Shown one piece after another: positions 336 through 31,692 of a stretch of 64,000 nt of DNA. Location of the stretch: NCBI RefSeq assembly GCF_988242995.1, contig NZ_OZ547043.1; one strand, 5' to 3'. The notes below the pieces were generated by a model, which saw only the letters and a list, made by a program, of their open reading frames with translations, was not told the origin of the DNA and did no database searches. The position numbers and the translations under genes are program-made. How positions within the stretch are numbered: the stretch's first letter is position 1; the number at the start of each line of letters is the position of its first letter.

Positions 336-2314
<1,979 letters not shown>

Positions 2315-2332
2315 CCTTTGAAAGGTGGCGGG

Positions 2333-3670
2333 ATGATGTATCGCATCAGAAATTGGTTGGTAGCGACGTTGCTGCTGCTGTGCGCGCAGGTGGGTGCCGC
2401 GACGCTCTCTGATATTCAGGTTTCTAACGGTAATCAACAGGCGCGGATAACGTTGAGTTTTATTGGCGATCCTGATTATGCGTTTAGCCATCAAAGCAAA
2501 CGCACCGTGGCGCTCGATATCAAACAAACGGGCGTGATTCAGGGGCTGCCGTTGTTGTTCAGCGGCAATAATCTGGTGAAGGCGATTCGCTCCGGAACGC
2601 CTAAAGATGCACAAACGCTACGGCTGGTGGTTGATCTTACCGAAAACGGTAAAACCGAAGCGGTGAAGCGGCAGAATGGCAGCAATTACACTGTCGTCTT
2701 TACGATTAACGCCGATGTGCCGCCACCGCCTCCTCCGCCGCCTGTGGTTGCGAAACGCGTTGAAACGCCTGCGGTTGTCGCACCGCGCGTCAGCGAACCG
2801 GCGCGCAATCCGTTTAAAACGGAAAGTAACCGCACTACGGGTGTTATCAGCAGTAATACGGTAACGCGTCCGGCAGCGCGCGCGACGGCTAACACAGGCG
2901 ATAAAATTATCATCGCTATTGATGCCGGACACGGCGGTCAGGATCCTGGCGCTATCGGCCCCGGTGGTACGCGGGAGAAAAATGTCACCATCGCCATCGC
3001 GCGTAAATTGCGTACTTTGCTCAATGACGATCCGATGTTTAAAGGCGTTTTAACCCGTGACGGGGATTACTTTATCTCGGTGATGGGGCGCAGCGATGTG
3101 GCTCGTAAGCAAAACGCCAATTTCCTCGTGTCGATTCACGCTGATGCCGCACCAAACCGCAGTGCGACTGGCGCTTCCGTATGGGTGCTCTCTAACCGTC
3201 GTGCAAACAGCGAGATGGCAAGCTGGCTGGAACAGCATGAGAAACAGTCGGAGCTATTGGGCGGAGCGGGCGATGTGCTGGCGAACAGTCAGTCTGACCC
3301 CTATTTAAGCCAGGCTGTGCTGGATTTACAGTTCGGCCATTCCCAGCGTGTAGGGTATGATGTAGCGACCAGTATGATCAGCCAGTTGCAACGCATTGGC
3401 GAAATACATAAACGTCGACCAGAACACGCCAGCCTTGGCGTTCTGCGTTCGCCGGATATCCCATCAGTACTGGTCGAAACCGGTTTTATCAGCAACAACA
3501 GCGAAGAACGTTTGCTGGCGAGCGACGATTACCAACAACAGCTGGCAGAAGCCATTTACAAAGGCCTGCGTAATTATTTCCTTGCGCATCCGATGCAATC
3601 TGCGCCGCAGGGTGCAACGGCACAAACTGCCAGTACGGTGACGACGCCAGATCGCACGCTGCCAAACTAA
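2333..3670 (+). CDS. amiB: N-acetylmuramoyl-L-alanine amidase AmiB
   Basis: ORF 2318-3670; start placed at ATG 2333 (MMYRIRNW...); signal peptide, poly-Pro linker, amidase_3 domain. Confidence 0.93.
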
Positions 3671-30970: not shown

Positions 30971-31278
30971 AGATACCTCCTCGACGGCTGACTTTGTGTG
31001 CTCTCCTCTGTGATGATCTTCTGATTTAATTTTAATCAATGATAAAGAAGTTGATGGTGACCATTTCTGATGCAGTTGTTCAAAAAAACACCATGATGAA
31101 GTGTGATGAACTTCAAATCAGCGTGTTAGTACGATTTGGTGAAAGATGAGATTTATTTGTCGGCTGGCCTTGAGTTTAGCAGGGTATGTCAGTACTATAA
31201 TGCGTCATTTTTCAGCCGACCTTTAACACGTTCCTTGCCTCCCCGGGATTCGGCTGACCCAGACAGGAGGCTGAATAA

Positions 31279-31692
<414 letters not shown>

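Follow-up and report, generated by a model that had tools for sequence, protein, structure and literature searches.

The eight-proline tract of the cell-division amidase AmiB: an EF-P-dependent sequence and its probable place at the start of the inter-domain linker

The proline-rich region of TonB is a rigid periplasmic spacer for which an extended polyproline-II conformation is expected. Polyproline motifs are costly to translate and have generally been lost or selected against in E. coli, and they are enriched near domain ends, between residues -2 and +9 (PMC5811046). In the cell-division amidases, the AMIN domain can relocate by means of a flexible linker of some 40-60 residues (PMC10214136). 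The amiB gene carries the longest run of proline codons in E. coli, and in wild-type cells the ribosome footprints rise sharply at its codons 130-138 (PMC4402525, 2015).

Here, we analyze this run in a 64-kb stretch of DNA (hereafter, the window) and compare it with its counterparts in other strains and species. The tract depends on EF-P, and its conservation is at the level of the protein. We consider it likely that it forms the proline-rich beginning of the flexible linker between the septum-targeting AMIN domain of AmiB and its catalytic domain. Its position fits the enrichment of polyproline motifs at domain ends (PMC5811046). The tract is a textbook-grade example and not a discovery. It is the longest proline run of the E. 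coli proteome and is found in a cell-division enzyme. The additions made here are small: a census of alleles, according to which about one sixth of the genomes carry a shorter or serine-interrupted tract, the restriction of the tract to one clade, and the ordinary in-frame slippage by which it changes.

Position of the tract in AmiB

The amiB open reading frame begins with the ATG at 2333, ends with the stop codon at 3668-3670 and encodes 445 amino acids (445 codons plus the stop). Its sequence matches the amiB annotated in strain 118UI at 100% identity (RefSeq CDS, same coordinates). The gene lies between tsaE upstream and mutL downstream, and the same flanks were present in all E. coli loci that were fetched. 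An amiB match was obtained in 5,425 of 5,426 complete E. coli genomes.

A single genome was without any amiB match, and 12 of 5,426 were without a match to a 107-base query covering the tract. In strain D3 (NZ_CP010140.1, locus 1789-3356), amiB is annotated as a pseudogene from which the N-terminus, including the AMIN domain and the tract, is gone. This pseudogene adjoins a frameshifted IS1 transposase, and cysQ and ytfJ are found upstream in place of tsaE in what is a rearranged locus. The window itself and strain 118UI have the same sequence between about 910 and 4653, a segment that covers the end of nnr, tsaE, amiB and the first 1 kb of mutL; over the positions compared (1-49921), the two differ by 12 mismatches in 297-909 and at many positions beyond 4653. 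The alignment suggests that this amiB allele sits in a mosaic background, with recombination around mutL.

A string search found CCGCCACCGCCTCCTCCGCCGCCT once in the window, at 2720-2743, where it is in frame with amiB and encodes PPPPPPPP, residues 130-137 of the protein. The sequence-only reading had reported an eight-proline run in amiB at 2719-2742. The 24-base string and its frame are confirmed, and the coordinates need to be moved one base rightward, as the range 2719-2742 translated literally gives AATASSAA. The window contains no other run of at least four prolines in open frames of 100 codons or more. With the proline frequency of the window (0.044), about 3e-7 such runs are expected in its open reading frames and about 2e-5 in a proteome the size of that of E. 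coli. A run of eight prolines is therefore far beyond chance.

Pfam places Amidase_3 (PF01520) at about residues 194-413 (E=2.8e-48, 164.7 bits against a cutoff of 27) and AMIN (PF11741) at about residues 27-112, the latter with 20.8 bits and thus barely over its cutoff of 20.5 (the match becomes 28-113 when translation starts at 2330). In the AF2 model, the AMIN beta-strands at residues 24-127 are confident, with pLDDT of 62-93 in 10-residue blocks, and the last strand comprises residues 118-127. No secondary structure is predicted for residues 131-188, where pLDDT is below 50, the tract region being a low-confidence coil, and the catalytic domain starts at residue 192. The model was built on 43 orthologues and has a mean pLDDT of 55.6, which is low overall because the alignment contains close relatives only, and it was used for the AMIN boundary and the disordered linker only. 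The only solved structure of E. coli AmiB, PDB 8c0j, matches residues 190-422 (E=5e-143), and the tract and the linker are outside every solved structure.

The tract begins three residues past the last AMIN strand. With this strand ending at residue 127, disorder extending over 131-188 and the solved structure starting at 190, the tract opens a linker of about 60 residues, in which 13 of 62 residues (128-189) are prolines. Pfam, AF2 and 8c0j thus agree with the proposal, made earlier from the letters of the DNA, that the tract lies between the N-terminal targeting domain and the amidase domain. No twin-arginine motif was seen in the putative signal peptide (about residues 1-22); we infer its cleavage site and a Sec export route from the sequence. 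The features are collected in Table 1.

Table 1. Coordinates in the window of amiB, its encoded domains and the sequence features of the proline tract
Feature	Position	Strand	Basis
amiB CDS, N-acetylmuramoyl-L-alanine amidase AmiB	2333..3670	+	ORF, RefSeq, Pfam, synteny
Putative signal peptide, about residues 1-22	2333..2398	+	Read from sequence; AF2 helix 3-17
AMIN domain, septal peptidoglycan-targeting, about residues 24-127	2402..2713	+	Pfam PF11741, AF2 strands
Inter-domain linker, residues 128-189	2714..2899	+	AF2 pLDDT <50; composition
Eight consecutive proline codons (CCG CCA CCG CCT CCT CCG CCG CCT), residues 130-137	2720..2743	+	Sequence, frame
Two overlapping CCU-C sequons (CCT CCT C), candidate +1 frameshift context	2729..2735	+	Sequence
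Amidase_3 catalytic domain, about residues 190-422	2900..3598	+	PDB 8c0j, Pfam PF01520

Alleles and conservation of the tract

The first sign of a second allele came from amiB matches whose span was 6 bases shorter and that encoded ADAPPSPPPMV. P8 is present in about 84% of 5,414 complete E. coli genomes, PPSPPP in about 13% and P6 in about 3%, with one P7 and one P11; these are estimates, as the BLAST identity bands were calibrated on few fetched loci and the genome collection is biased. Identity to the P8 query was at least 95% in 4,538 genomes, 90-95% in 154 and 80-90% in 722, and identity to the PPSPPP query was at least 99% in 698 genomes, 95-99% in 153 and 80-90% in 4,423. The loci that were fetched include P8 alleles from the K-12 lineage, APEC O18 and SCU-105, uninterrupted P6 alleles from SX4, FEA3 and strain 4750, and PPSPPP alleles from M16807, R12, Esc7 and HM670. 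Matches to the PPSPPP query also name Nissle 1917, ATCC 25922 and O25b:H4-ST131.

The two rarest alleles are instructive about how the tract changes. P11, in EC42405, is the P8 of its lineage plus a perfect 9-bp tandem duplication of CCGCCACCG, and P7, in strain 18SZHZ655Rt, is missing one CCG codon. The exact P7 and P11 proteins were recovered from independent NCBI, ENA or Logan assemblies, on at least 24 contigs apiece, and they are therefore circulating alleles and not assembly errors. A synthetic P9 probe retrieved no genome of that length among the matches listed, and no P9 or P10 appeared near the top among the matches listed for the P11 query; P9 or P10 on divergent flanks are possible. 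All allele differences within E. coli are of 3, 6 or 9 bp and keep the frame. The tract is thus variable in length between strains, as had been suspected, with P8, P6, PPSPPP, P7 and P11 alleles among E. coli genomes.

This variation raises the question of whether the tract could be a contingency (phase-variable) repeat, a hypermutable CCN run that would switch or modulate amiB within a strain. Such a repeat would be compatible with the length differences between strains and with the perfect 9-bp duplication in one allele. However, the run is imperfect, made of mixed CCG, CCA and CCT codons, and its longest exact internal repeat is 6 bases. Most genomes share one length, the length classes follow lineages, P7 and P11 occur in one complete genome each, and the matches listed for the P9 probe include none of that length. 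Since every change is a multiple of three and the frame is always kept, the tract is not a phase-variable repeat. With an imperfect repeat, rare in-frame changes and lineage-fixed alleles, this explanation is effectively refuted and retains a very slight chance of being correct. Variation in the tract is a matter of rare in-frame indels fixed in lineages, not of rapid repeat instability.

Beyond E. coli, we compared 80 AmiB loci of Enterobacteriaceae, with one genome per species. A proline tract directly past the conserved TINAD[AV] strand was found in 80 of 80 species, and VVAKRVE then follows in most of them. Taking these loci together with the window, the longest run of prolines is 8 in 30 loci (the P8 of the window being one of the thirty), 7 in 15, 6 in 15, 5 in 12, 9 in five, 4 in two, 10 in one (Raoultella planticola) and 3 in one. 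Interrupted tracts also occur between species, e.g., PPPPPSPPP, and in a minority of species the run is broken or ended by S, A, T, Q, K or R. Codon usage in the tracts is mixed (CCG 289, CCA 143, CCT 127 and CCC 17), with third positions scrambled between species. As the prolines are kept and their synonymous codons are scrambled, what is selected is the prolines, or their translation, rather than the DNA sequence.

The same comparison bears on the idea that the tract is conserved as a nucleic acid element, either an opposite-strand gene or a C-rich Rho-loading or structured RNA element, to which we assign next to no probability. An antisense ORF of 104 amino acids, rich in arginine, does span the tract (2618-2932), and the C/G ratio within amiB peaks in the 78-nt windows around the tract, at 1.56 compared with a median of 0.92. 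However, the nucleotide sequence varies between species and the prolines do not. The antisense ORF was rejected as a gene: its arginine run results from reading the CCN codons in reverse complement, the RefSeq annotation has no gene at this place, and the DNA is unconserved. A Rho-loading element was rejected as well, a C/G ratio of 1.56 being weak for a Rho site. An Rfam search of the window gave no family match at the tract region. Away from the tract, the same search returned matches at gathering score for the RpsF leader (31215-31299, +), the ES239 sRNA (42737-42859, +), STnc490 (46560-46683, -), STnc450 (48143-48200, -) and naRNA4 (CssrE; 57816-57892, +).

Codon context within the tract deserves a separate comment. 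PMC8129111 describes the CCC/U-C context as promoting +1 frameshifting and as being selected against genome-wide. The tract of the window contains two overlapping sequons of this type (Table 1), and a hypothetical +1 shift there would reach a stop after 47 codons. At least one CCY-C context is present in 63 of the 80 AmiB tracts, i.e., the context is not avoided.

More distant AmiB proteins were reached through representatives at 50% identity, as the ordinary homologue listing gave close relatives only. Among these representatives, a run of at least four prolines was present only where the AMIN domain was at least 72% identical to the query. In the more distant AmiB-like proteins, the linkers range from 15 to 127 residues, are mostly of comparable length and contain no proline run. 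The tract is thus not needed for AmiB function in general. Judging from these homologues, it is an Enterobacteriaceae innovation maintained at the protein level.

Could the tract then be simply a tolerated low-complexity linker without a selected role? In that case, an ancestral run of the Enterobacteriaceae would have persisted and its length changes would be neutral slippage. The absence of the tract from more distant AmiB proteins, its wide variation in length, the non-proline interruptions in a minority of species, the toleration of slippery CCY-C contexts and the large linker deletions found in natural isolates would all be in line with this explanation. Shortened or interrupted tracts (e.g., P5), together with linker deletions of 25-31 residues, indicate that linker geometry is loosely constrained. 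However, the tract is kept at the same junction in every one of the 80 species, with a longest run of 4-10 prolines (PPSPPP was found in the remaining locus, an E. coli-like fragment), and non-proline substitutions are rare in spite of the scrambled third codon positions. Moreover, pure neutrality predicts decay, as E. coli loses costly polyproline motifs (PMC5811046). We therefore regard an entirely neutral linker as rather unlikely, and favor a linker start whose prolines are selected.

Several natural variants of the AmiB linker were encountered along with these data. Variants of 414-420 amino acids (P0007-P0011, P0013 and P0017, from E. coli, Shigella sonnei and S. flexneri) keep P8 and are missing 25-31 residues of the downstream linker (about 2800-2890 in the window). 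Their deletion joints read '...VSEPAR|ATANTGDK' or '...VVAPR|ATANTGDK', with end points at short repeats, and one of the variants (P0008) was found on 23 contigs, one of them of 5.05 Mb. Escherichia whittamii has a 10-residue in-frame duplication just past the tract and an AmiB of 455 amino acids. Two further proteins, P0006 and P0012, combine a Citrobacter- or Salmonella-like N-terminal half, with its own tract (PPPPAP, PPPPPP), and a C-terminal half identical to that of E. coli. Each of them comes from a single short contig, and they may be either inter-genus recombinants or chimeric metagenome assemblies.

Ribosome stalling and EF-P

The sequence-only reading had also held that a poly-proline run of this kind stalls ribosomes in an EF-P-dependent manner. 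Published ribosome profiling bears this out. Supplementary Data 3B of PMC11611912 (2024) lists RiboSeq asymmetry scores, a measure of stalling strength that relates ribosome occupancy before and after a motif, for the six PPP triplets and one PPV triplet of amiB. These scores are 1.00-1.24 in BW25113 wild type and 6.74-10.5 in the delta-efp strain, and stalling in amiB without EF-P is thus about 6- to 10-fold above wild type (PMC11611912). In the delta-efpL strain the scores are 1.01-2.94, and overproduction of EfpL in delta-efp brings them to 3.77-6.68, which is a partial rescue (PMC11611912). The profiled strain was BW25113 and not the strain of the window, and genomes of the K-12 lineage, among them a Keio-collection derivative, share the protein tract.

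AmiB has reportedly served as a natural test protein in work by Doerfel in 2013. The EF-P dependence of its tract is, in any case, already known from published data. In the literature examined, no measurement of the AmiB protein level in an efp mutant was found. Full-text searches for AmiB together with EF-P, efp or polyproline returned PMC4402525 as the sole relevant paper, and amiB is absent from the supplements of Elgamal 2014 and Starosta 2014. The natural alleles described above would lend themselves to comparing tracts of different length and interruption in their EF-P dependence, and they open no new question.

A stall of this strength invites the explanation that the EF-P-sensitive pause is itself useful and that the tract is kept because of it. 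Such a programmed throttle might let EF-P activity or growth state set the AmiB copy number, or might provide a delay for Sec targeting, with the signal peptide and the AMIN domain already out of the ribosome at the pause and with allele length setting the strength of the effect. The very strong stall without EF-P and the footprint peak even in wild type would be expected under this explanation, and the family-wide conservation of the tract, although polyproline motifs are generally selected against, would also find a reason. The enrichment of polyproline motifs just past domain ends, for which a co-translational role has been proposed (PMC5811046), points the same way, as does the report that proline codon choice in CadC tunes pausing and protein copy number (PMC8129111).

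Other observations are difficult to reconcile with a selected pause. The wild-type score of about 1.0-1.2 indicates no net ribosome loss when EF-P is present. Run length drifts from 3 to 11, the codons have no consistent slow or fast pattern, and there is no known condition in which EF-P activity limits AmiB. In addition, as no twin-arginine motif was seen, AmiB is probably exported unfolded by Sec, which weakens a role in co-translational folding. Selection for the pause itself is thus quite improbable in our opinion.

A more speculative version, which we hold to be very unlikely, would make the tract an EF-P-sensing valve that ties AmiB synthesis to translational capacity, with the allele (PPSPPP/P6, P8 or P11) setting its strength. 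Stall strength, gene position and lineage-specific alleles could be read in this way. Loss of transcription-translation coupling at the stall might further affect read-through into the downstream mutL-miaA-hfq genes. If such a valve existed, lineages with short interrupted alleles (ST131, Nissle-like) would be less sensitive to EF-P limitation.

A linker start compared with known proline-rich systems

The explanation that we prefer, a proline-rich start of the inter-domain linker, can be laid out as follows. The tract is translated as eight prolines in AmiB, a periplasmic cell-division amidase, and ribosomes need EF-P to pass it. Selection on the prolines, or on their translation, keeps the tract at the AMIN junction, and occasional in-frame indels of 3, 6 or 9 bp between short CCN repeats give rise to lineage-specific alleles. 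In the protein, the run may form a short and stiff polyproline-II rod, of about 25 Å for P8 at some 3.1 Å per residue; this value comes from standard geometry, and we give the rod itself about an even chance. Such a rod would keep the remaining disordered linker and the catalytic domain at a distance from the AMIN domain. The loosely constrained geometry of the linker, and the AmiB homologues outside the Enterobacteriaceae that manage without a proline run, count against this explanation. The dependence on EF-P would then be a tolerated cost of the rod and not its purpose.

Among described systems, the EF-P-dependent polyproline motifs (XPPX/PPP, e.g., that of CadC) resemble the AmiB tract in being consecutive proline codons in a translated ORF. 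Stalling at AmiB likewise rises in delta-efp and is partly rescued by EfpL. They differ in that codon choice is reported to fine-tune the copy number of CadC (PMC8129111), whereas no regulatory use is known for the AmiB stall. Simple-sequence contingency loci are a second point of reference. Like them, the AmiB tract is a short-unit coding repeat with a copy number that varies between strains and at least one tandem duplication. Unlike them, it is an imperfect repeat that changes only in frame, with no on/off switching and with rare alleles fixed in lineages.

At the level of the protein, AmiC (PDB 4bin) and AmiB in the FtsEX-EnvC-AmiB complex (PMC10214136) have the same two-domain layout and the same Amidase_3 fold. 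A proline run is absent from the junction in the distant AmiB-like representatives, which sets the tract apart as a feature of the Enterobacteriaceae clade. The TonB spacer is similar to the AmiB tract in being a proline-dense segment of an envelope protein, with an anchoring or targeting part on one side and a functional domain on the other. The TonB spacer, however, is far longer and consists of alternating dipeptide repeats that contain proline, whereas AmiB has a pure run of 5-10 prolines followed by about 50 disordered residues. The AmiB tract may adopt an extended conformation as well.
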